DNA from: Candidatus Allochristensenella caecavium
Lineage (GTDB): Bacteria; Bacillota; Clostridia; Christensenellales; QAND01
Length of the DNA stretch: 64,000 nt
Direction: 5' to 3'
Assembly: GCA_904397865.1 (NCBI GenBank)
Contig: CAJFOS010000013.1
Location: 1-64,000, forward strand
Position 1 is the stretch's first letter, and the number at the start of each line of letters is the position of its first letter. A program made the position numbers and the translations under genes. Below are positions 2,437-12,980 of this stretch, piece by piece. Under the pieces are notes generated by a model. It did no database searches, was not told where the DNA came from, and was given only the letters and a program-made list of their open reading frames with translations.

Positions 2437-2523
2437 ATTGTGATTTAACCGGCGGATTTGTAAGGGTTTTGTGATGCGCGGTCAGTAGAATGAAATTGTA
2501 TAAGCAAAGAAGTGGGGGATACC

Positions 2524-3516
2524 ATGACAATTTTGCTCGTTGACAGCGATAAAAGGGCGCTGGACCGGGAAGCCAAACGCCTGGCGGACCAGCAATCTGC
2601 CGCCATGGTTGTCCTGCACAGCAACGCCAACGATGCCTTGAAATTTGCAATGTATCATGATGTGCATATTGTTTTTACAAGACCCGCACTGGTGGAGATG
2701 TCCGGCCAAGAATTGATTGAAAAAATACTTCGCTTCAAGCCGGAAGTGGAATGCCATATGCTCGCACAGGGCGAGGAAGTTCCGCTTGTGTACTTTCTGG
2801 GTAAAGACAAAGATGCGTTCCGTTCCGAGAACGTAAGTGACAGCCACACAAAGATGAATGATACAAAAGGTGAAATGCATACAATCAAGAATAAGAAGAG
2901 GTCGGGAAACGATTCTCCTCAAGAGGGGCAAAAGAAAGGCGATACACATATGACGGAACGGCAGTTACGCAGTTTGGGCAGAAAAGAACTTTTGGAAATG
3001 ATGATTGAACAGGGAAAAGAACTGGAGTTTGTCAAATCGGAACATGCAAAAGATTTGGAATTTGTAAAAGCGGAGCACGAGAAAGAAATAAATGCGTTAA
3101 AACAAGAGCTGGAGAAAGCCCGCGCAGCCCTGCAGAACCGGGAAATCGCTATCAATGAAGCGGGCTCGATTGCGGTGGCGGCCCTTCAGATAAACGGGAT
3201 TTTTGAAGCGGCGCAGGCCGCGAGCCAGCAATATATCGAAAATATCCGTACGCTCAATGACCGGCAGGCGGCGCTCTGTGCCCAGCGGGAGGAAGCAAGC
3301 CGGGCCGAAGCCGAACGGCGGCTGAGAGAGACGGCCGCCAAATGTAAGACCATGGAGGCGGCGTGCCGGGACAAATGCGCGGCGATGGAACGCGATGCAC
3401 AACAGCGTTCGGAAGCATACTGGACGGAGGTTTCCAAACGCCTGCAATCATTCTATGAGAATCATCAGGAGCTGAAAAAACTCCTGGGTTATAGCATCCC
3501 AGGGATTCAAATATAA
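2524..3516 (+). CDS. Hypothetical protein: degenerate (pseudo-)receiver domain fused to a long coiled-coil
   Basis: N-terminal 100 aa align to the upstream receiver (ILLVDSD...VHIVFTRPALVEMSGQEL), but the phospho-acceptor Asp position is T/R. Low-complexity linker, then a heptad-rich coiled coil with the tandem repeat ELEFVKSEHAKDLEFVKAEHEKE. RBS GTGGGGGA. Confidence 0.6.
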   Translation: MTILLVDSDKRALDREAKRLADQQSAAMVVLHSNANDALKFAMYHDVHIVFTRPALVEMSGQELIEKILRFKPEVECHMLAQGEEVPLVYFLGKDKDAFRSENVSDSHTKMNDTKGEMHTIKNKKRSGNDSPQEGQKKGDTHMTERQLRSLGRKELLEMMIEQGKELEFVKSEHAKDLEFVKAEHEKEINALKQELEKARAALQNREIAINEAGSIAVAALQINGIFEAAQAASQQYIENIRTLNDRQAALCAQREEASRAEAERRLRETAAKCKTMEAACRDKCAAMERDAQQRSEAYWTEVSKRLQSFYENHQELKKLLGYSIPGIQI

Positions 3517-3529
3517 ACGGAGTGCCGGT

Positions 3530-4114
3530 ATGAAACGCAAATCAATCACCTGTTTGCCCACGGTACAGCAACTGGAGCAGGAACTGAAACGGGAAGCCTA
3601 TCGGAAGCGGTATCGGAGAATGTTGGGCAGTACGATTTCGACGCTCATCGTTGTGGCGGCGGCTGTCGTGCTGATATCCCATCTTTTGCTGCCCATCCTG
3701 CGGATTTACGGTACGTCGATGACGCCGACTCTGACGGACGGCAACATTGTTGCAGCTATAAGAAAAGGTTCCTATGAGCGCGCAGACATCATCGCTTTTT
3801 ATTACAATAACAAAATTCTGGTAAAACGTGTGATTGGCTTGCCGGGGGAATGGATAGACATGGATGAAAACGGCAATGTGAGCATCAACGGGCAAACCTT
3901 GCAGGAGCCGTATTTGAAAGAAAAAGCGTTCGGGGAATGTGATATCCAGTTCCCTTACCAGGTGCCTGACAGCCGATATTTTGTCATGGGAGACCATCGC
4001 AGTGTTTCCAGCGATTCCCGTAACAGCGATGTAGGGTGTGTGTCAGAGGAGGATATCGTGGGGACGTTGGTCTTTCGGCTCTGGCCGCTGAACGAATTGG
4101 GCGAGATTGAATAG
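3530..4114 (+). CDS. Signal peptidase I, SipW/archaeal-ER type, pilus-associated
   Basis: N-terminal TM. Box B GTSMTPTL (Ser nucleophile). Box D VMGDHRSVSSDSR (His general base, SipW type). Sits immediately upstream of the pilin genes, as SipA/LepA does in streptococcal pilus islands. Confidence 0.8.
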   Translation: MKRKSITCLPTVQQLEQELKREAYRKRYRRMLGSTISTLIVVAAAVVLISHLLLPILRIYGTSMTPTLTDGNIVAAIRKGSYERADIIAFYYNNKILVKRVIGLPGEWIDMDENGNVSINGQTLQEPYLKEKAFGECDIQFPYQVPDSRYFVMGDHRSVSSDSRNSDVGCVSEEDIVGTLVFRLWPLNELGEIE

Positions 4115-4134: not shown

Positions 4135-7100
4135 ATGAAACCACAGGATAAACAAAATAAAATCCAGGAATATATACGGGAACACAAGTTGAGAAAACGC
4201 TGGCATAAGCTGACCGCTGTCCTGGCGGCAGCAGCGATTGTGGTAACGACTACCGTTATGGTTCTGCCGGCTCTTACCCTGGAGAACGGCCCGAAAGTGC
4301 TGGCGTGCCAGCTGAATCTCCATACCCATATTGCCAGCTGTTATGACGAATCGGGCAGCCTTGTTTGCGGATATGCGGATTTTGTTGCACATGTTCATAA
4401 CGAATCCTGCTACGCCGAAGACGGAACGTGCATTTGTTCGCTGGAAGAAATCCGGCCTCACACGCACGATGAATCATGCTACCAGGAAACACTCGCCCAA
4501 GTGTGTGGATTTGATGGTGAGGAGCATGCGCATACGGATGCTTGCTATATGATGGCGGACGAATTGGTTTGCGGGCAGGAAGAAACAGCGCCGCATGCCC
4601 ATACGGAAGATTGCTATGATGCGAATGAGGGCCTGGTTTGCAAACAATCGACAGACGCACATGTCCATACGGAACAATGTCATGCGCGTTCTGAGGAGCC
4701 AATCTGCGGCAAGGACGAGCAAATACATACGCATACCGACGCCTGTTATGAAGCCCATAGGGAATTGGTTTGCGGCAAAGAGGAAATCGTTTTGCATACC
4801 CACACTGCCAGCTGCTTTGATGCGGACGGCAAGCCGGTTTGCGGCAAGATGGAAGTCAGGGAACATATCCATGACGCCAGCTGCCTTCCTGCTGAAATCA
4901 AAACGGACAAACAAACAAGCTGGGCGACGGTGGATAAGAACGGATTCAAGGCTGCAAGAAGGCGCACTGCCGCCACAAACGCCTTGCGCGCGGCGCAGAG
5001 CGTGGACTTCACGCAGTATATTACACAAATGTCCCTTTCCAAAGCGGTTGATGGACAATGGGTACCGGTTACAGAGGTCACGACCGGCGATTCCATCCGG
5101 CTGAACATCCACTACACGATTCCAGAAAATGTGGTGGGGCCGGATTCTCGGGTGATTCACTACCAGCTGCCCAAGGGAATCGGGCTGGAGGAACAGGCAA
5201 CCGGACCGGTCACCATCGAAGGCAGTTATGCCGGCGAATACGTGATACAACCGGGAGGACTTATCCAGATTACCTTCACCCAGGCATTTGCCGACAACCG
5301 CCCCTTTACAGGGGAGCTGGAATTCCAAGGCATTGTTACCGCCACTGGCCAGGAAGGAGAAGAAGAAATTGATTTGGGCACTGCCGGCGGCACGGTCACG
5401 GTAAAACCGGATGAGGAGGCAACCGACCTTACCGTGGCCAAAGAAGGATGGTATGACAAGGAAAATAATCTTATTTACTACAGCATCACGGTGTCCAGTG
5501 AACAGGGAACGGATGGGCCGCTGACAATGGAAGATGCCTTTATGCATCAGCCGGATTATGGGGTTGTCAATTATAAAGAGGTAGTTGAATTCTATAAGCT
5601 GAATGCCGATGGAACCAAAACCCATCCCTTGGATGAGCAAAGCCTCTTGGCACTTTTGCATATAAGTGGCCAGACACCGGACAAAACCGCCTCTTTCACG
5701 CTGGGGCCCTTGCCGGCTTTAGGGGCTGGAGAATCGTATGTGTTTGCCTATACCGCTGAACCGGACCTGAATGTATCCGGCGACGCAAACGGCTATACGC
5801 AGTTTGCCAACACAGCGGTAGCCCATGACGACAGCCATTCCGCCCAAGCCAGTGTGAACATCAAAGTATCGGATACAATGGTTCACAAGGAAGGCGTATA
5901 CGACCCGTTGACGCAGAAAATCAAATGGTCGATTTATCTCAACGAGAGCCAGCGGGACATCGGCGGGCTGCGGCTGGAGGACACGCTTACCTACACGGCC
6001 AACGGACAGATATACACGGCGGATTTGCCGGAGACTGTCCAGATTGAACTGTTCCGGGATTACCAGCCGCTGGGGATTGTTGAAAACATATCGATTCCAT
6101 TCACCTTCCCGGAAAATTCCAACGTACAGTATCTGGTTACTTATGAAACGGAGATGCCGGCCAATCTCCCAGATGGAAGCTATGTTACTTTCCACAATAC
6201 GGTGCGGCTGGGAAGGTACGAGGTGGAAATTGACGTTGACGGTTACGCCCCCGGCGATTATGGGGTGATAAAGGGAATGACGGACGCCGATTCAGATACG
6301 GGCATTGTGGAATGGGCCGCGTCTATCGCACACCCGACACCCCTGGATATTCAAAAGCTGCACTATGTGGATTGGATTCCCAATCTGCTTCTGGCAGACG
6401 GCACATTTTTGCCGGGTAGCCATTACACTACCCCGCGGCTTCTGGCCGATTCGCTTCGGATTCAGGCGGTGGAGGGAGCGTTTCTGCAATACGGAACCGA
6501 CTATACGCTGCAGGCAGTCTCCAAAGCAGACGTTGAAGCCCTGATGGAGGAACTTAACCTGACGGATGAGAACCTGACCTGGGCAGTGCAGGAACTTTCA
6601 TATGAAGAGCTGTCGCAATACTTCCGCCTGCAGCCTATCGGAAGCTTTGAGCAGGATGAACCGCTTGGGCTGTTCTCCATCGAATTTCAGACGAGCGCCA
6701 TAGGGAAAATCGGCGAAGCCAGTCTTTTGCTTACCTACCACACGCAAGTGAATGTGAGCAATTTACCCGCAGGGGTTGAACGGGCGACGGTGGGGAATCT
6801 GGGGCGAATTCCGGATGGCTATATGCTGGCGCGGGGCAACATGTCCTTTGGTGCGAGGCTGAATAAACAGGCCAGCCAGACCGGTATCCCTGAGGCGGGC
6901 AAGGATTCCAGCTCCTATACCGATGTTCCGCTGACCGTCCATTCAGGCGATACAGATGGAATCCTACACTACCGAATCCTGATTTCCGATTATAGCAAAT
7001 ATAACGATGAGAATGCAGTCACGGTGACGGATACGCTGCCGGCCGGGGCCAAGCTTGTAAAGGATTCAGTCGTCTTGCGCAGCCATCCCAACGGGTTTAA

Positions 7101-8700
7101 CACCTTCGATGTCCAAACGACGGACCCCTGGTATATAGCGCAAGTTTCCACAGTTGAAAACCCGGACGGAACGACGGCGGTCACTTTCTTCATCTCGCAT
7201 ATCAAGGACCTAAGCGGAGCTCCCTTCGGCATCTACTATGACGTTTCCGTTGCGCAAGACGGAGAACTTATCAGCAGCGGCGAAAAGCAATATACCAACA
7301 CCGTGGCCTGGGATGGGGAAACCGACAGCACGACCACCACGGTAAAACACACCTTGCCCCGTCTGGAAAAGGTGGGAGAGCGGCTCCAAGCGGCGGAGGG
7401 GGCGGAAGAGCTTTCCGACAGGTTGCGCTACTATGTCACTATCAACCCGACGGGCGAACGGCTGAATCCGTATGACAACCACCTGACCTTGGAGGATGTG
7501 CTGAGCATCCCGGCTGGCAGCAGTGCGAGTTTTCCGCCGGATAGCGTAAGGCTTTACCGCTATAATTCAGCCGATGCGGAAAACCACTTCTGCGGGGAAG
7601 CCATCGACCCGTCGCTGTATTCCGCCGAGTACGATGGTGCGACACGGACGATTACGTTCACAATACCGGACCGGACCGCCTGCGTCCTGGTTTATGACTA
7701 TATCATTGACCGTGGAACAGCCGCCGGGGATTTGAACATCTTTAACACGGTAAAACTCAGCGGGCATGGGGAATTCTCTTCCGAATCGGGAATCGTTATG
7801 GAAGAGGAACAATCCTCCGCCACGGTGAATAAGGCGACGGTGACGATTTATAAGCACGAAAGCGGCAACTCGCTGCATCTGCTGCCTGGAGCAACGTTCC
7901 GGCTGGAACGATATGAACAGACCGGCGCTGGATACGAATGGCGGCAGACCTCCGCCACGGCGACAGGTGCGGGCGGATTGTTCGTAGTCGGTGAGGAAGG
8001 CAAGATTGTGCTGAGCTTTGTGAACGAAACCTCGCTGTACAATACGCTGTACCGCCTGCAGGAGATTGACGCCCCGGATGGGTATTTGAAGAGCGACGCC
8101 ACGTACTACTTTATCTGGGGTGAGCGGGGCGAGACAAAAGAGGCGGCGCTTGCGCGGATGCAGGAAAACGGAGCGCTGGGCAATGTGCCCCTGGAACAGA
8201 TTGGCTTTGTTGCTTTTTCCACCTCCCATGCCATCTATGTTCCCAATGAGCCCGATGCGTTGACCGTCGTCAAGACATGGCGCAACGACGCGGGCGAGGT
8301 TTTAGAACAAGCGCCGATAGGGGAGGTTACCATCCAGCTGTACCAGTGGAAGGACGGCGTGAAGACCGCCTATGGCAATCCGGTGGAACTAAATGCCGGA
8401 AACGGCTGGTCGTATACCTGGAATGCGCTGCCCAAAGTGGATGGGGACGGGAAATCTTATCATTACACGGTGGAGGAAGACCCCTTATCCGGTTTCCAGA
8501 TTGCATATGTCAACAATGAAGGCGTTCAGACTGGGATGATTGAGGTCGTCAATACGCAAAACGAATATGTCCTGCCGGAAACCGGTGGAGCGGGGCCAAG
8601 GTTCTTTTTCCTTGCAGGGCTGCTTCTTGCCGGAGCGTCTGCCGCCGGATACGTATATTTGAGGCGCAGACATCGGAAGGAGGGAATGCCCCTTCAATAA
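4135..8700 (+). CDS. Pilus tip adhesin / LPXTG surface protein with N-terminal Cys/His-rich tandem repeats
   Basis: Signal/TM segment. About 9 tandem H-x-H...C-Y...L-V-C-G units (aa 64-256). Central beta-rich region. E-box-like YRLQEIDAPDGY. C-terminal CnaB/SpaA-type isopeptide domain (VVKTWRND...YHYTVEE). LPETGG, hydrophobic span, then RRRHRK tail. The ORF track starts at TTG 4117; ATG 4135 follows RBS GGGAGGGAGG. Confidence 0.85.
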   Translation: MKPQDKQNKIQEYIREHKLRKRWHKLTAVLAAAAIVVTTTVMVLPALTLENGPKVLACQLNLHTHIASCYDESGSLVCGYADFVAHVHNESCYAEDGTCICSLEEIRPHTHDESCYQETLAQVCGFDGEEHAHTDACYMMADELVCGQEETAPHAHTEDCYDANEGLVCKQSTDAHVHTEQCHARSEEPICGKDEQIHTHTDACYEAHRELVCGKEEIVLHTHTASCFDADGKPVCGKMEVREHIHDASCLPAEIKTDKQTSWATVDKNGFKAARRRTAATNALRAAQSVDFTQYITQMSLSKAVDGQWVPVTEVTTGDSIRLNIHYTIPENVVGPDSRVIHYQLPKGIGLEEQATGPVTIEGSYAGEYVIQPGGLIQITFTQAFADNRPFTGELEFQGIVTATGQEGEEEIDLGTAGGTVTVKPDEEATDLTVAKEGWYDKENNLIYYSITVSSEQGTDGPLTMEDAFMHQPDYGVVNYKEVVEFYKLNADGTKTHPLDEQSLLALLHISGQTPDKTASFTLGPLPALGAGESYVFAYTAEPDLNVSGDANGYTQFANTAVAHDDSHSAQASVNIKVSDTMVHKEGVYDPLTQKIKWSIYLNESQRDIGGLRLEDTLTYTANGQIYTADLPETVQIELFRDYQPLGIVENISIPFTFPENSNVQYLVTYETEMPANLPDGSYVTFHNTVRLGRYEVEIDVDGYAPGDYGVIKGMTDADSDTGIVEWAASIAHPTPLDIQKLHYVDWIPNLLLADGTFLPGSHYTTPRLLADSLRIQAVEGAFLQYGTDYTLQAVSKADVEALMEELNLTDENLTWAVQELSYEELSQYFRLQPIGSFEQDEPLGLFSIEFQTSAIGKIGEASLLLTYHTQVNVSNLPAGVERATVGNLGRIPDGYMLARGNMSFGARLNKQASQTGIPEAGKDSSSYTDVPLTVHSGDTDGILHYRILISDYSKYNDENAVTVTDTLPAGAKLVKDSVVLRSHPNGFNTFDVQTTDPWYIAQVSTVENPDGTTAVTFFISHIKDLSGAPFGIYYDVSVAQDGELISSGEKQYTNTVAWDGETDSTTTTVKHTLPRLEKVGERLQAAEGAEELSDRLRYYVTINPTGERLNPYDNHLTLEDVLSIPAGSSASFPPDSVRLYRYNSADAENHFCGEAIDPSLYSAEYDGATRTITFTIPDRTACVLVYDYIIDRGTAAGDLNIFNTVKLSGHGEFSSESGIVMEEEQSSATVNKATVTIYKHESGNSLHLLPGATFRLERYEQTGAGYEWRQTSATATGAGGLFVVGEEGKIVLSFVNETSLYNTLYRLQEIDAPDGYLKSDATYYFIWGERGETKEAALARMQENGALGNVPLEQIGFVAFSTSHAIYVPNEPDALTVVKTWRNDAGEVLEQAPIGEVTIQLYQWKDGVKTAYGNPVELNAGNGWSYTWNALPKVDGDGKSYHYTVEEDPLSGFQIAYVNNEGVQTGMIEVVNTQNEYVLPETGGAGPRFFFLAGLLLAGASAAGYVYLRRRHRKEGMPLQ

Positions 8701-8768: not shown

Positions 8769-10487
8769 ATGAAAAAACTGAAAAAACTGGCGGCGGCTTT
8801 ACTGTCGCTGGCCATGACGGCGATGCTCGCTGTCCCGGCCTTTGCGCAGGCAGGTGATTATTCCATCACCATCAGCAACACAAATGCAAACCATACCTAT
8901 ACCGCCTACCAGATTTTCAAGGGCGATGTTTCCGGCGGGACTGGGGATGGCACAACGGGCAACAGCACCTATCTTTTATCCAACATTGAATGGGGCTCCG
9001 GCGTGCAGAATATCAGCGGTCTGCTCACTGCGCTGAAAACCCAAGCGGGATTTACATCGCTAACCGACCAGTCCACCGCTGCTGATGTGGCAAAGCTGCT
9101 GGACAGTGCCGCGGATTTGGAGACCTTCCTGACGGTGCTCAATGGGACGCCCGGTTACCTGAGCAGTACGGCCGCGGGGACAGCTACGCCTGGCGCAGGG
9201 ATGACTGCATGCACCATCAACCTGACCGAGGGCGGTTATTATCTGGTCAAGGATAGCCTTGCCGGAGAAACCCCCGACGACTTCGTCAGCGATTATATCG
9301 TTCAGGTCCTGGGCCAGGAAACCATGGCCCCCAAAGGCGATAAGCCCACCGTTGAAAAGAAGGTCTATGAGGAGAGTCTCTCCGCCGCCACCACGGACTG
9401 GGGCAATGGCTACAACGACGTAGCGGACTATGATATCGGTGATGCCGTCCCCTTTAAGATTGTTGCCTCCATCCCTGACATGACCGGTTATAACGGTTAT
9501 GAGTTTGTTATCACTGACACCCTCTCCAATGGACTGACCTTGGCCGAGGACACGCTTCAGGTCTACGTAACCGCTGCCAAGGACACCGCGCTGGATGCGC
9601 TGACTCCGCTGAGTGCGGGAACGGATTACACGCTGGCCACTACGGACATTGGTGATGCGAGTTTTACCCTCACCTTTGAGAACATGGAGGAGAATGAGGA
9701 TTTTACCGCTTCAGATGATAATTACATCATTGTCACTTATACTGCAACGCTGAATGAAAATGCGGAAATTGGCCTGGACGGCAATCCCAACGAGGTTGAC
9801 CTGACCTATTCCAATGACCCCAACGGCAAAGGCAAAGGGAAAACCCCCAAGGATTATGTTGTCGTGTTCACGTATGAACTGGACGGCACGAAGGTCGATG
9901 GAAAAAATACGGAGACCAAACTTAAGGATGCGGAATTTGTCCTGTTGAACAACGCCGGTACTCAGGTAGCGAAGATAGACAGCAACGGCAAGTTTGACGG
10001 CTGGGTGAATGTGCCGGATGGTTCCGGTGACGCCGGTGCAATCACCTATGGTGACTGGACGACATTTAATCAGACCCACAAGGTCATCATGACCTCTGCG
10101 GAGACATCCGGCAGCTTCGGCATTTCCGGGCTGGACGAGGGCGCCTATCTCCTGCGGGAGATAAAGGCTCCTGAGGGCTACAATCTAATCAAGAACGACC
10201 AGACGCTGGTCATCGCCGCCAGCACCGGCGAAGTGCAGAATTATAATGGGACGGCTTCCAGTGTACTGACTACCCTGACGCTTAAAGTCGGCGAGGAGGA
10301 ACCGAAGGCCGGCAATGTGGCCGACGGTACCGTGGCCATTGAGGTGCCCAATAATGCCGGCGCTACGCTGCCTGAAACCGGGGGCGTCGGTACGACTATC
10401 TTCTTCGTGCTGGGCGGTGTGATGTTGCTTGGAGCGGGCATCCTTCTGACTGTGCGAATTCGCATGAAGGCTACCAATCGCCAATAA
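8769..10487 (+). CDS. Major (backbone) pilin subunit, LPXTG-anchored
   Basis: Signal peptide MKKLKKLAAALLSLAMTAMLAVPAFA. E-box YLLREIKAPEGYNL. LPETGG plus TM plus RIRMK tail. Thr/Gly-rich Ig-like regions. Strong RBS GGGAGGAG. Confidence 0.85.
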   Translation: MKKLKKLAAALLSLAMTAMLAVPAFAQAGDYSITISNTNANHTYTAYQIFKGDVSGGTGDGTTGNSTYLLSNIEWGSGVQNISGLLTALKTQAGFTSLTDQSTAADVAKLLDSAADLETFLTVLNGTPGYLSSTAAGTATPGAGMTACTINLTEGGYYLVKDSLAGETPDDFVSDYIVQVLGQETMAPKGDKPTVEKKVYEESLSAATTDWGNGYNDVADYDIGDAVPFKIVASIPDMTGYNGYEFVITDTLSNGLTLAEDTLQVYVTAAKDTALDALTPLSAGTDYTLATTDIGDASFTLTFENMEENEDFTASDDNYIIVTYTATLNENAEIGLDGNPNEVDLTYSNDPNGKGKGKTPKDYVVVFTYELDGTKVDGKNTETKLKDAEFVLLNNAGTQVAKIDSNGKFDGWVNVPDGSGDAGAITYGDWTTFNQTHKVIMTSAETSGSFGISGLDEGAYLLREIKAPEGYNLIKNDQTLVIAASTGEVQNYNGTASSVLTTLTLKVGEEEPKAGNVADGTVAIEVPNNAGATLPETGGVGTTIFFVLGGVMLLGAGILLTVRIRMKATNRQ

Positions 10488-10558: not shown

Positions 10559-11419
10559 ATGAAAAATGATGATTTAAAAAAGAACAAGAGAGTTTCCATC
10601 CTGTTGATAATCGTTTTTTTTGCAGGGTTGTTTTTACTGCTGTATCCAGTGGTCAGCGATTATTGGAACTCGCTGTATCAATCACGTGCTATTTCCTCTT
10701 ATGTAGATGTGGTGACGGAGATGGATGACGACTCGTATGAAGACATGTGGAAGCAAGCGCAGGCGTATAACGCCGCCCTGCAGGGCAATCCAAACCGTTT
10801 CCAGCCCAGTGAGGAGCAAAGGAAAAACGGTGAAAAGCTGTTGGATGTCACGGGGAATGGCATCATCGGCTATGTCGAAATTCCATCGATTGACGTCATG
10901 CTGCCCATTTATCACGGAACCGATGAGGAGGTTTTGCAAGTCGCCATTGGACATGTTGAAGGCTCCTCTCTCCCGATAGGCGGTGCAGGAACGCATTGTG
11001 TCATATCCGGTCACCGTGGGCTGCCTTCCTCCAGATTGTTTACCGACCTGGACCAGCTGGCGGAGGGAGATATCTTCATTCTGCGGGTGTTGGATGAAAC
11101 GCTGACCTATGAGGTGGACCAAATCCGCATTGTAGAGCCGGAGGATATCTCTTTATTGGGAATCGAAGAGGGGAAGGACTTTTGTACCTTGGTGACCTGT
11201 ACGCCGTATGGCGTCAATTCCCACCGCCTTTTGGTACGGGGCCATCGGGTAGAGAATCAGCAGACATTCCAAACGCTGCGCGTTACGGCGGATGCGATGC
11301 TGGTTGATGCACGCCTGGTTGCACCAATACTCGCAATCCCCATTCTGCTGGTTCTTGTATTGCTGGTGGCGCTGCGGCCGCTGATGAGAAAAAGAAAATC
11401 CGAAAGAGGTGATAAATAG
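10559..11419 (+). CDS. srtC: Class C (pilus-polymerising) sortase
   Basis: N-terminal TM. Catalytic His (VISGHRG). TLVTCTPYG Cys motif. LLVRGHRV Arg. C-terminal hydrophobic anchor plus KRK tail, typical of class C. Confidence 0.85.
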   Translation: MKNDDLKKNKRVSILLIIVFFAGLFLLLYPVVSDYWNSLYQSRAISSYVDVVTEMDDDSYEDMWKQAQAYNAALQGNPNRFQPSEEQRKNGEKLLDVTGNGIIGYVEIPSIDVMLPIYHGTDEEVLQVAIGHVEGSSLPIGGAGTHCVISGHRGLPSSRLFTDLDQLAEGDIFILRVLDETLTYEVDQIRIVEPEDISLLGIEEGKDFCTLVTCTPYGVNSHRLLVRGHRVENQQTFQTLRVTADAMLVDARLVAPILAIPILLVLVLLVALRPLMRKRKSERGDK

Positions 11420-12364
11420 ATGAAAATCCGCATGCCTTGGAAGCGCATTGGAGCGACGTTATTGGCTGTCGTGATGGGAATCGGCTGCATATCGGCTGCC
11501 GCGTTTGCCCGGGAAAGTATCGAGACTGACAGGGCAACTTCGCTAAGCATATATTTTGGTGCAGATGGAATCGGGTTTTCTGCAGTGAACTTTTCCATTT
11601 ATCGCGTGGCAAATACTTCGGAAAACGGCGCCTTCACATTGACGGGAGATTTTGCCGACTATTCCGTCAACCTGGAGGACCTGGATAGCTCCGGCTGGCG
11701 GGCGCTGGCCCAGACGCTCGCCGTTTATACGGCACGGGATGAATTGAAACCGCTTCGTACGCAGAGAACCGGACAGGGTGGACGGGTCAGCTTTGCGGGC
11801 CTTGCCGTGGGATTGTATTTGGTAATCGGTGAGGAATATGCAGATGCAAACGCCATCTATACCCCGGAACCCATGTTGGTATCCCTTCCGGAATGGACGG
11901 AGGAGGGGGACTGGAACTACGGCATAGAGGCCACATGTAAATTTGACCGTAGGGATAAGACGCCTGGGCGGGTAAGCCGTAAGGTACAGAAGGTTTGGAA
12001 GGATGACGGCAATGAGGACACGCGGCCCAAAGAGATTTCCGTGCAGCTTCTGGAGAACGGGACTGTTGTCGATACCGTCCTATTGAACAAGAAAAATAAC
12101 TGGGAATATACGTGGGAGAATTTAGACAGCAACGCAAGGTGGCAGGTGGTCGAATCGGAAGTGCCGGCTGGATACACCGTCACCGTAGCGCAGGAAGGAA
12201 CGATATTTGTCATAACGAATACCCGCCCGTATGAACCGCCGCCCAAACTGCCTCAAACAGGAATGCTGTGGTGGCCAGTGCCAGTGCTTGCCTGCGGCGG
12301 ATTGTTGTTGGTATTAGCTGGATGGATGGTGCGGCGTAAGCAGGGAGATTCCCATGGAAAGTAA
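11420..12364 (+). CDS. Minor/basal pilin with CnaB-type domain, LPQTG-anchored
   Basis: Signal peptide. CnaB-like KVQKVWKDDGNEDTRPKEISVQLLENG...YTVTV. Pro-rich PYEPPPK preceding LPQTGM plus TM plus RRKQ. Start overlaps the srtC stop (translational coupling). Confidence 0.75.
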   Translation: MKIRMPWKRIGATLLAVVMGIGCISAAAFARESIETDRATSLSIYFGADGIGFSAVNFSIYRVANTSENGAFTLTGDFADYSVNLEDLDSSGWRALAQTLAVYTARDELKPLRTQRTGQGGRVSFAGLAVGLYLVIGEEYADANAIYTPEPMLVSLPEWTEEGDWNYGIEATCKFDRRDKTPGRVSRKVQKVWKDDGNEDTRPKEISVQLLENGTVVDTVLLNKKNNWEYTWENLDSNARWQVVESEVPAGYTVTVAQEGTIFVITNTRPYEPPPKLPQTGMLWWPVPVLACGGLLLVLAGWMVRRKQGDSHGK

Positions 12365-12980
12365 AAGAAAAGGAGGAACAGCCCTTATAGCGCTCGGGCT
12401 GCTGCTCATTGCAGCGGCCCTTTTTCTAATCGGATATAATCTGTTTGACGAATACAGAGCCGGGAAAACGGCTCGCCGAGTATTGGCAATGCTGCGGGAA
12501 CAAGCCCCCATTGACGCTGGCATCCCGGAAGTATCGTCGCCGGGCAAGGAAGTCGTTCCAGATTACGTGCGCAACCCGGACATGGAGATGCCGACCAGAG
12601 AGGTTGAAGGCAATGATTATATCGGGATTTTAGAGATTCCGTCATTAGAGCTTTCTTTACCGGTGATGAGCAGATGGAGCTATCCCAAGCTGAAAATTGC
12701 GCCATGCCGCTACAGCGGCTCCGCTTACGAGGGAAACCTGACGATTGTAGCGCATAATTACCGCACCCACTTTGCATCGGTGCGAGATGTTCCGGTTGGG
12801 ACCCGGGTGCTGTTTACCGATGTAAAAGGGCGCATCTTTGCTTATGAGGTTGCGGCGATTGAAACAGTTGAAGCCAATGCCGTCCAGGAAGTGGTGAACG
12901 CTGCATGGGATTTGACGCTTGTTACTTGTACGCCAGGCGGGCAGGCCCGTGTCGCTGTGCGATGTGTAAAGGCGGGATAA
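12354..12980 (+). CDS. Second sortase-family transpeptidase
   Basis: N-terminal TM. His (IVAHNYRTHF). LTLVTCTPGG Cys motif. conserved Arg (ARVAVRC). Overlaps the basal pilin gene end. Confidence 0.7.
   Translation: MESKRKGGTALIALGLLLIAAALFLIGYNLFDEYRAGKTARRVLAMLREQAPIDAGIPEVSSPGKEVVPDYVRNPDMEMPTREVEGNDYIGILEIPSLELSLPVMSRWSYPKLKIAPCRYSGSAYEGNLTIVAHNYRTHFASVRDVPVGTRVLFTDVKGRIFAYEVAAIETVEANAVQEVVNAAWDLTLVTCTPGGQARVAVRCVKAG

Follow-up and report, generated by a model that had tools for sequence, protein, structure and literature searches.

Background

Among proteins of the Gram-positive surface, the Pht proteins (PhtA/B/D/E) bind Zn at short tandem HxxHxH units, with one tetrahedral Zn site that includes an H-x-H, and pass the metal to AdcAII (PMC3842936). 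Here we describe an array of nine tandem units of the form C-x(4-7)-H-x-H-x3-C (CHHC units), located behind the signal peptide of a 1521-amino acid (aa) LPETG-anchored adhesin, presumably a pilus tip protein, of Candidatus Allochristensenella caecavium. The gene lies in a stretch of 64,000 nucleotides (contig CAJFOS010000013.1 of assembly GCA_904397865.1, positions 1 to 64,000 of the forward strand), referred to as the window. The array is a previously unannotated extracellular repeat and, judging from its sequence, most likely a new extracellular Cys2His2 metal knuckle. It resembles the Pht proteins in its Gram-positive surface location, its short tandem units and the presence of H-x-H. However, Zn is bound in Pht by three His and one Glu without any Cys, the units are longer and built on a three-stranded sheet, and the genes show linkage to adcAII, which encodes a Zn transporter, whereas the array gene adjoins genes for a signal peptidase, pilins and sortases. 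No HxxHxH is present in the array, where H-x-H is followed only by x3-C, and no match to Strep_his_triad (PF04270) was obtained.

Another Gram-positive LPXTG protein with Zn2+-dependent tandem repeats is Aap/SasG, in which His, Asp and Glu residues of the long G5-E repeats coordinate Zn between two molecules. By comparison, the four ligands of each array unit lie within 15 residues, suggesting intramolecular sites, and no homology between the array and the G5-E repeats was found. With respect to zinc modules of other origins, the retroviral CCHC knuckle (C-x2-C-x4-H-x4-C; zf-CCHC) is also a mini-module, of ~14 residues, with four Cys/His ligands and possible tandem arrangement, in which Cys is often followed by Gly and the C-x4-H and H-x(3-5)-C spacings are comparable. 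It differs in having C3H rather than C2H2 ligands, in a different order, and in being a basic cytoplasmic or viral nucleic-acid binder, while the array is acidic; neither a Pfam nor a fold match connected it with the array. The ligand order Cys-His-His-Cys, and a terminal H-x3-C on a helical turn, are shared with the eukaryotic CHHC finger of U11-48K, GTSF1 and TRM13 (CPX4HX9HX3C), which binds Zn 1:1 and has been described as exclusively eukaryotic (PMC9539491). There, however, nine residues separate the two His, as opposed to one in all nine units here, and the domain is RNA-binding and has ~40 aa, as opposed to 12-15 aa. The array does not conform to C-P-x4-H-x9-H-x3-C and showed no sequence or fold match with this finger.

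The protein that carries the array is in turn comparable to the tip adhesins of sortase pili (RrgA, GBS104, SpaC and the CnaA-type adhesin of C. perfringens), being encoded by the large first gene of a pilin/sortase operon and having immunoglobulin (Ig)-like Cna_B and SpaA domains, a collagen-binding-like domain and an LPETG signal. In our literature searches, none of the characterised tip pilins was reported to have an N-terminal Cys/His repeat. The presence of a signal peptidase gene within the locus is known from other pilus islands.

Nine CHHC units and their proposed ligand register

The original prediction described nine tandem repeat units after the signal/transmembrane segment of the adhesin. 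Translation of positions 4306-4884 reproduced the peptides quoted there, and nine H-x-H-x3-C motifs were found, at aa 63, 86, 109, 131, 154, 176, 198, 221 and 244 (Table 1). The period, which had been given as ~21 aa, is in fact 22-23 aa, and the Tyr or Phe listed after the Cys is replaced in unit 6, which has C-H. In 20,000 shuffles, the expected number of motifs per shuffle was on average 0.02 for the whole protein and 0.16 with the composition of the region, with a maximum of 3, compared to the nine observed. The array stretch holds 19 of the 21 Cys and all nine HxH of the adhesin, and it is strongly acidic, with 41 D/E vs 12 K/R in aa 51-262. The repeat is apparent at the protein level only: mean DNA identity between units is 49% and Tandem Repeats Finder detected no tandem repeat in the DNA of the array, on which grounds a recent repeat expansion at the DNA level was rejected.

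Two registers were considered for the units. In the CHHC register, C-x(4-7)-HxH-x3-C (exemplified by the single-unit peptide VCGQEETAPHAHTEDCY), there are nine complete ligand sets between Cys58 and Cys250, while in the HHCC register, HxH-x3-C-x8-C (peptide HAHTEDCYDANEGLVCK), Cys58 is left unused and the ninth unit has no second Cys. Similar ends are seen in the family: in the 229 arrays of its 150 best members, a Cys is present at most 12 aa upstream of the first HxH in 216, and there is no Cys after the last HxHxxxC in 166. Isolated single units in homologs had the upstream Cys in 18 of 20 cases and the downstream Cys in eight. Because array ends and isolated units fit the CHHC register, this was preferred; the H-x-H-x3-C part of the unit initially proposed is retained, and its closure with x8-C is revised. 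Analysis of 121 homologous fragments indicated that the distance from HxH to Cys is three residues in 707 of 746 cases, whereas the gap between the first Cys and HxH is seven (351 cases) or four (196 cases); the residue after the last Cys is Tyr in 79% and Phe in 10%, and long insertions are commoner in the inter-unit hairpin than in the stretch from the first Cys to HxH. The resulting unit consensus is [LIV]-x-C-G-x-E-E-(x0-3)-H-x-H-[TD]-[ED]-x-C-[YF].

Conservation in the array concerns the putative ligands. In unguided MAFFT alignments of the 121 homologs, the columns conserved in at least 90% of the sequences were Cys and His only. All 12 ligand positions of units 1-3 were either invariant or conserved at 90% or more in 41 orthologs, with the four columns of unit 1 being invariant; among the unit types of the family, that of unit 2 (CGYADFVVHTH) is the best conserved, and unit 3 has an extra Cys just upstream (Cys99), which is not conserved. 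A His-less variant unit, C-[TE]-Q-D-T-G-C-Y, recurs in three orthologs (P0001, P0291 and P0340) and is not found in the window. It keeps both Cys, with the loop and HxH replaced by five residues, and cannot bind metal as the other units would, if these do.

Since it is exactly the His and Cys columns that are invariant across homologs, a metal site is the most economical reading, and two invariant His plus two invariant Cys, with rigid spacing in H-x-H-x3-C and a single flexible loop, are the hallmark of a small metal knuckle. We estimate at roughly 0.55 the probability that the nine-unit CHHC array is an extracellular, probably Zn-binding, knuckle repeat. Each 22-23-aa period would contain a knuckle of 12-15 residues, C-x(4-7)-H-x-H-x3-C, whose four ligands would coordinate a single divalent ion, with Zn2+ as the most likely candidate, tetrahedrally as a Cys2His2 site; a short helical turn would bear the second His together with the last Cys, and successive knuckles would be linked by a C-[YF]-x7-C hairpin. 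The nine metal-stapled beads would form an elongated, strongly acidic chain, which would lie farthest out on the LPETG-anchored adhesin once the protein has been exported and the unusual signal peptide cleaved off, probably by the signal peptidase I of the gene just upstream. In view of the invariant ligands and of a strictly anaerobic setting, in which Cys of exported proteins can remain reduced, we propose that every CHHC unit holds one Zn2+. What the data show is the motif with its register statistics, the invariance of the ligands, the size of the family, the location behind the signal peptide, the synteny with the peptidase and the behavior as a cassette; metal binding, the nature of the metal, processing by the upstream peptidase and the role of the array are features that we infer.

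With regard to this role, we favor a metal-stabilised structural or adhesive extension. In LPXTG proteins, ligand-binding regions are usually N-terminal. As a sub-hypothesis, the array could be a metal-triggered early-folding element that aids the export of very long proteins and prevents back-sliding; this would fit with its near-constant position right after the signal peptide of such proteins. The module also follows the signal peptide of hydrolases.

Searches for known families and predicted structure

Searches in Pfam-A 2025 and NCBIfam 20.0 returned no family over aa 58-250 at E<=1 besides a sub-threshold match of the repeat to Kazal_2 (18.3 bits, the cut-off being 22.8), and no family in these databases covered the arrays of 25 large family members. 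None of the PDB sequences matched at E<=10 in single-sequence or profile searches with the repeat, and no fold match was obtained. This agrees with the original prediction, where the repeat was not recognised as any described pilin or adhesin domain. Full-text literature searches based on peptide words and the motif, on Cys-rich pilus repeats and on zinc-binding adhesin repeats yielded nothing relevant, and the repeat goes unmentioned in a large survey of fibrillar adhesin domains. In their sources, homologs are named 'hypothetical protein' or 'Cna B-type domain-containing protein'. There is a fair chance that the repeat has a structurally new fold.

An AlphaFold2 model of aa 51-262, obtained with 121 sequences, had a mean predicted local distance difference test (pLDDT) score of 68.5, with values of 82-92 in units 1-3 and 8-9. 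Every unit was locally alike in the model, consisting of a three-residue helix up to the last Cys followed by a beta-hairpin that spans from the Tyr to the L-V preceding the next Cys. A second run, restricted to units 1-3 and using an in-register alignment of orthologs, gave the same secondary-structure pattern at lower confidence (pLDDT 59.5). According to the model, the second His and the last Cys would be one helical turn apart, as in the H-x3-H/H-x3-C of classical fingers, and each hairpin would carry one ligand of two successive sites.

Distribution, partner domains and copy number

A profile search against 1.84 billion representative proteins identified 6,691 protein clusters at E<=1e-3, 2,986 of them at E<=1e-30. 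The 150 best of the 6,691 matches are mostly proteins of 1,000-3,900 aa with 8-45 units each, and 77.5% of all their Cys are inside units that cover 21% of their residues. A signal of the LPA[ILV]T type is present in 103 of these proteins and the first unit is within 100 aa of the start in 149, these positions being biased towards N-terminal arrays by the inclusion of the signal peptide in the search profile. An LPxTG end was found in 116. Partner domains in 25 large members include SpaA, Cna_B, DUF7601, VWA, CHAP, GBS104-like tip-pilin Ig, thioester (TED), PA14 and M23; CHAP domains were observed in five of the 25.

In a scan of GTDB species representatives with an alignment of the N-terminal region of 11 orthologs, 303 loci were confirmed, which correspond to the subfamily with an LPALTLE-type signal peptide and a CGYADFVV unit; a single-protein query of the same representatives returned no relatives. 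The 80 loci that were retrieved belong to Oscillospiraceae, Lachnospiraceae, Ruminococcus, Faecalibacterium, Dorea, Blautia, Faecalicatena, Guopingia, Anaeromassilibacillus and similar taxa, which are strictly anaerobic Clostridia living in the gut of humans, chickens, rabbits and ruminants.

The module was also observed in other settings. In one locus (L081, 1-9041), a 4,003-aa surface protein with Flg_new repeats is immediately followed by a 346-aa protein in which a signal peptide and five CHHC units are combined with a CHAP (hydrolase) domain. In another (L083/L084, 8001-9056), a 351-aa protein with four CHHC units, present on at least 24 contigs, is part of an operon with a signal peptidase, several proteins of 190-220 aa, one of which weakly matches Peptidase_M73/TasA-like (TasA/camelysin-like), and a 1,002-aa VWA protein, next to Mob_Pre, ParB and serine-recombinase genes. 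On the basis of this operon setting, the CHHC module is also part of a mobile, non-sortase fibre-like system. A record from human faeces deposited as 'UNVERIFIED: Bacteriophage sp.' (L085, MT835974.1, 4870-10640) contains a 196-aa open reading frame (ORF) followed by a 1,719-aa array ORF; with its layout of peptidase plus adhesin, as in the bacterial loci, it is probably bacterial DNA. As MT835974.1, the sole phage record, is probably bacterial, a phage origin was rejected, and so was a plasmid origin, as no plasmid match was found.

Variation in copy number between strains had been anticipated. In the 90%-identity cluster of the adhesin, however, the length of 1521 aa and the number of nine units recur in each of the five other full-length members, and it is among species-level orthologs that numbers vary (0 or 5-11). 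In 119 orthologs of 33-57% identity, between 5 and 11 strict motifs were counted, most commonly 10. Three N-terminal units (C.LNLHTH, CGYADFVVHTH and CPLEEI..HTH) and two C-terminal units (C.KEEIVLHTH and CG..EV.EH.H) are conserved in the orthologs, and a middle block of CGQEE..GHTH units is variable. Two orthologs (P0301 and P0302, 47-48% identical) keep the signal peptide and the adhesin and cleanly lack aa 53-289, which defines the array as a separable N-terminal cassette.

Alternative explanations

Several observations weigh against a metal knuckle. The array shows no likeness to any known zinc finger, by sequence or fold; the confidence of the two AlphaFold2 models is moderate; the N-terminal positions among the best matches carry the search bias mentioned above; and the array is dispensable for the adhesin (fold), as indicated by the two orthologs without it. 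In addition, each modeled hairpin is flanked by the Cys of successive units, so that either the HHCC register or a disulfide is sterically conceivable. The same metal knuckles in the HHCC register, with the site closed by the hairpin, would account for the fixed i+9 spacing of the Cys and for the proximity of both to the hairpin base in the model. This we regard as unlikely, given that the conserved first Cys would be orphaned and the last site incomplete in the majority of the arrays counted above, isolated units mostly lack the downstream Cys, and the hairpin segment accommodates long insertions in more cases than does the stretch from the first Cys to HxH. Distinctly unlikely, in our opinion, is a disulfide-stabilised Cys-rich repeat without metal, where Cys i and i+9 of each hairpin would be paired and the His used otherwise. 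Disulfides are relied upon by actinobacterial pilins (PMC5478893), the number of Cys is even, the i+9 spacing is present in 8/8 hairpins of the window and in 320 of about 560 cases in homologs, and both Cys are at the base of one hairpin in the AlphaFold2 model. Nevertheless, such pairing would leave the first and last Cys of most arrays unpaired and would not explain why H-x-H is as invariant as Cys. In the model, moreover, Tyr(i+1) pairs with i+7, which would place Cys i and i+9 diagonally, likely on opposite faces of the hairpin. The hosts are strict gut anaerobes, and Firmicutes largely avoid Cys in exported proteins, many of them lacking oxidising machinery.

Metal capture had been one of the functions suggested for the array. 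In a zincophore-like role, the surface sites would scavenge Zn, Ni or Cu for an uptake system, for which the regular ligand sets at the outermost position of a surface fibre and the transfer of Zn from Pht to AdcAII (PMC3842936) could be invoked. We find this quite improbable. The locus encodes neither a metal transporter nor a metalloregulator, and AdcR- and Zur-like boxes were not above chance and none was near the operon, the reason why a Zn-regulated operon was rejected; what is conserved next to the array gene in 80 species is the signal peptidase and a receiver-like protein rather than any transporter, the domains that accompany the module are of adhesin and hydrolase types, and the Pht family signature (Strep_his_triad) is missing. 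Cys2His2 sites, besides, usually bind metal too tightly for hand-off. A redox or electron-transfer module, with Rieske-like [2Fe-2S] clusters or copper at the pilus tip, had also been contemplated, and two His plus two Cys is indeed the ligand composition of Rieske centers and the hosts are anaerobic. The spacing, however, is unlike the Rieske pattern C-x-H...C-x-x-H. Insertion of a cofactor before export is unlikely for proteins of 1,000-3,900 aa with Sec-type signals, twin-arginine-like motifs (RRxFLK-like) being found in only 3/150 family members, a frequency that also led us to reject export by the twin-arginine (Tat) route; cofactor-assembly genes are absent from the vicinity, as are CxxCH motifs. 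This makes a redox role highly improbable. Finally, compositional chance, low-complexity sequence or a mis-called frame can practically be dismissed: there is only the acidic bias of the region in their favor, compared to shuffles that never exceeded three motifs, thousands of homologs with the same ligands, and a frame that continues through the array in a 1521-aa protein whose exact sequence was found again in public assemblies.

The adhesin and its locus

The CHHC array was predicted to belong to an LPETG adhesin of a sortase-pilus locus, and this was confirmed by the domains, the sorting signal, and the pilins and sortases encoded next to it. The adhesin ATG is preceded by a ribosome-binding site, GGGAGGGAGG, and the protein starts with MKPQD, as does its homolog P0001. 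C-terminal to the array, Pfam-A identified Big_8, Collagen_bind, DUF11, SpaA (1.8e-5) and Cna_B (4.7e-14), the last two above their own cut-offs. As in sortase-dependent pilus adhesins, Ig-like Cna_B/SpaA stalk domains are combined with a C-terminal LPXTG signal, hydrophobic segment and basic tail (the sequence after LPETG is GAGPRFFFLAGLLLAGASAAGYVYLRRRHRK), and the same operon codes for a backbone pilin and a pilus sortase. The size of the protein, the gene order and the absence of the YPK pilin motif suggest that it would be located at the tip of the fibre, the YPK test being uninformative on this point, since the backbone pilin likewise lacks a literal YPK. In this pilin, which also matches the isopeptide domain of RrgB (RrgB_K2N), the polymerisation lysine is not obvious.

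The genes follow the order histidine kinase, LytTR-type-like response regulator, 334-aa protein, signal peptidase I, adhesin, backbone pilin, sortase, minor pilin and second sortase (Table 1). The locus has a GC content of 0.50-0.55, which matches the rest of the window and gives no support to its description as an accessory island. The kinase and regulator upstream of the pilus genes (227-2332) are of the LytS type (7TM, His_kinase, HATPase_c) and BtsR/LytR-like, respectively, and have homologs in only about 10/80 related loci, so that their link to the pilus genes is probably local. A three-gene head formed by the 334-aa protein, signal peptidase I and the array protein was seen both in the window (2512-4114 for the first two genes) and in the related loci (L001-L080).

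The signal peptidase I gene stops 20 nucleotides before the adhesin start. Its homolog is located directly upstream, on the same strand, in 74 of the 80 related loci, and the gene for the 334-aa protein is found upstream of the peptidase in 63. The signal of the adhesin has a basic n-region of about 25-27 aa with a net charge of about +6, followed by a hydrophobic segment (aa 26-48) and closed by the motif VLPALTLE (family consensus LPA[ILV]T[ML]E). This long basic signal with LPALTLE end is exclusive to the adhesin, the AxA signals of the backbone pilin (8769-8850) and the minor pilin (11420-11510) being ordinary, and the peptidase may thus be dedicated to the signal peptide of the adhesin. 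The pairing of signal peptide and peptidase persists in the orthologs that lack the array and is consequently independent of it.

Table 1. Positions of the array, its units and the surrounding genes in the window
Feature	Position	Strand	Description
334-aa protein	2512..3516	+	weak receiver-like N-terminus, coiled-coil-like C-terminus
Signal peptidase I, bacterial type	3530..4114	+	Ser/Lys boxes SM, KRxxGxPG and GDxRxxSxDSR intact
LPETG-anchored adhesin gene (presumed pilus tip protein)	4135..8700	+	ORF, encodes 1521 aa
Atypical signal peptide, aa 1-50	4135..4284	+	basic n-region, hydrophobic core, VLPALTLE
Separable cassette, aa 53-289	4291..5001	+	array plus 39-aa basic/Ala-rich linker
CHHC array, aa 58-250	4306..4884	+	nine units of C-x(4-7)-H-x-H-x3-C with C-[YF]-x7-C beta-hairpins between them
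Unit 1, CQLNLHTHIASC	4306..4341	+	C58, H63, H65, C69
Unit 2, CGYADFVAHVHNESC	4366..4410	+	C78, H86, H88, C92
Unit 3, CSLEEIRPHTHDESC	4435..4479	+	C101, H109, H111, C115
Unit 4, CGFDGEEHAHTDAC	4504..4545	+	part of variable middle block
Unit 5, CGQEETAPHAHTEDC	4570..4614	+	part of variable middle block
Unit 6, CKQSTDAHVHTEQC	4639..4680	+	His in place of Tyr after last Cys
Unit 7, CGKDEQIHTHTDAC	4705..4746	+	
Unit 8, CGKEEIVLHTHTASC	4771..4815	+	conserved C-terminal unit type
Unit 9, CGKMEVREHIHDASC	4840..4884	+	conserved last unit; no Cys after unit 9
LPETG sorting motif	8572..8586	+	aa 1480; then hydrophobic segment, basic tail
Backbone pilin	8769..10487	+	GramPos_pilinBB, SpaA, LPETG; AxA signal peptide
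Sortase, presumably pilus-polymerising	10559..11419	+	
Minor pilin	11420..12364	+	Cna_B, LPQTG
Second sortase	12354..12980	+	

Concluding remarks

Sortase-anchored adhesins and pili mediate the contact of many abundant gut Clostridia with the host, with food particles and with each other, and almost none of them has been characterised. The module described here, present in more than 6,600 protein clusters, represents an annotation gap, as it is missing from Pfam, NCBIfam and the PDB, and the close pairing of a signal peptidase with an atypical signal peptide suggests that these giant proteins are exported by a route of their own. Our broader and more tentative proposal, to which we give slightly less than even chances, is that this is a new class of extracellular metal-binding mini-domain that stands at the head of thousands of proteins of gut Clostridia, among them adhesins anchored by sortase, tip proteins of pili and hydrolases of the cell wall, is exported by means of a dedicated signal peptide/peptidase pair, and gives function through metal-dependent folding. 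If true, such folding outside the cell would provide fibre tips with a specific function, for example metal-dependent adhesion or an export/folding ratchet for giant proteins. If the units do bind zinc, they would be unusual Cys-containing zinc knuckles working outside the bacterial cell, which could be recognised by a simple sequence signature and tested in a model system of peptide size, and they would link metal availability and redox state in the gut to adhesion.

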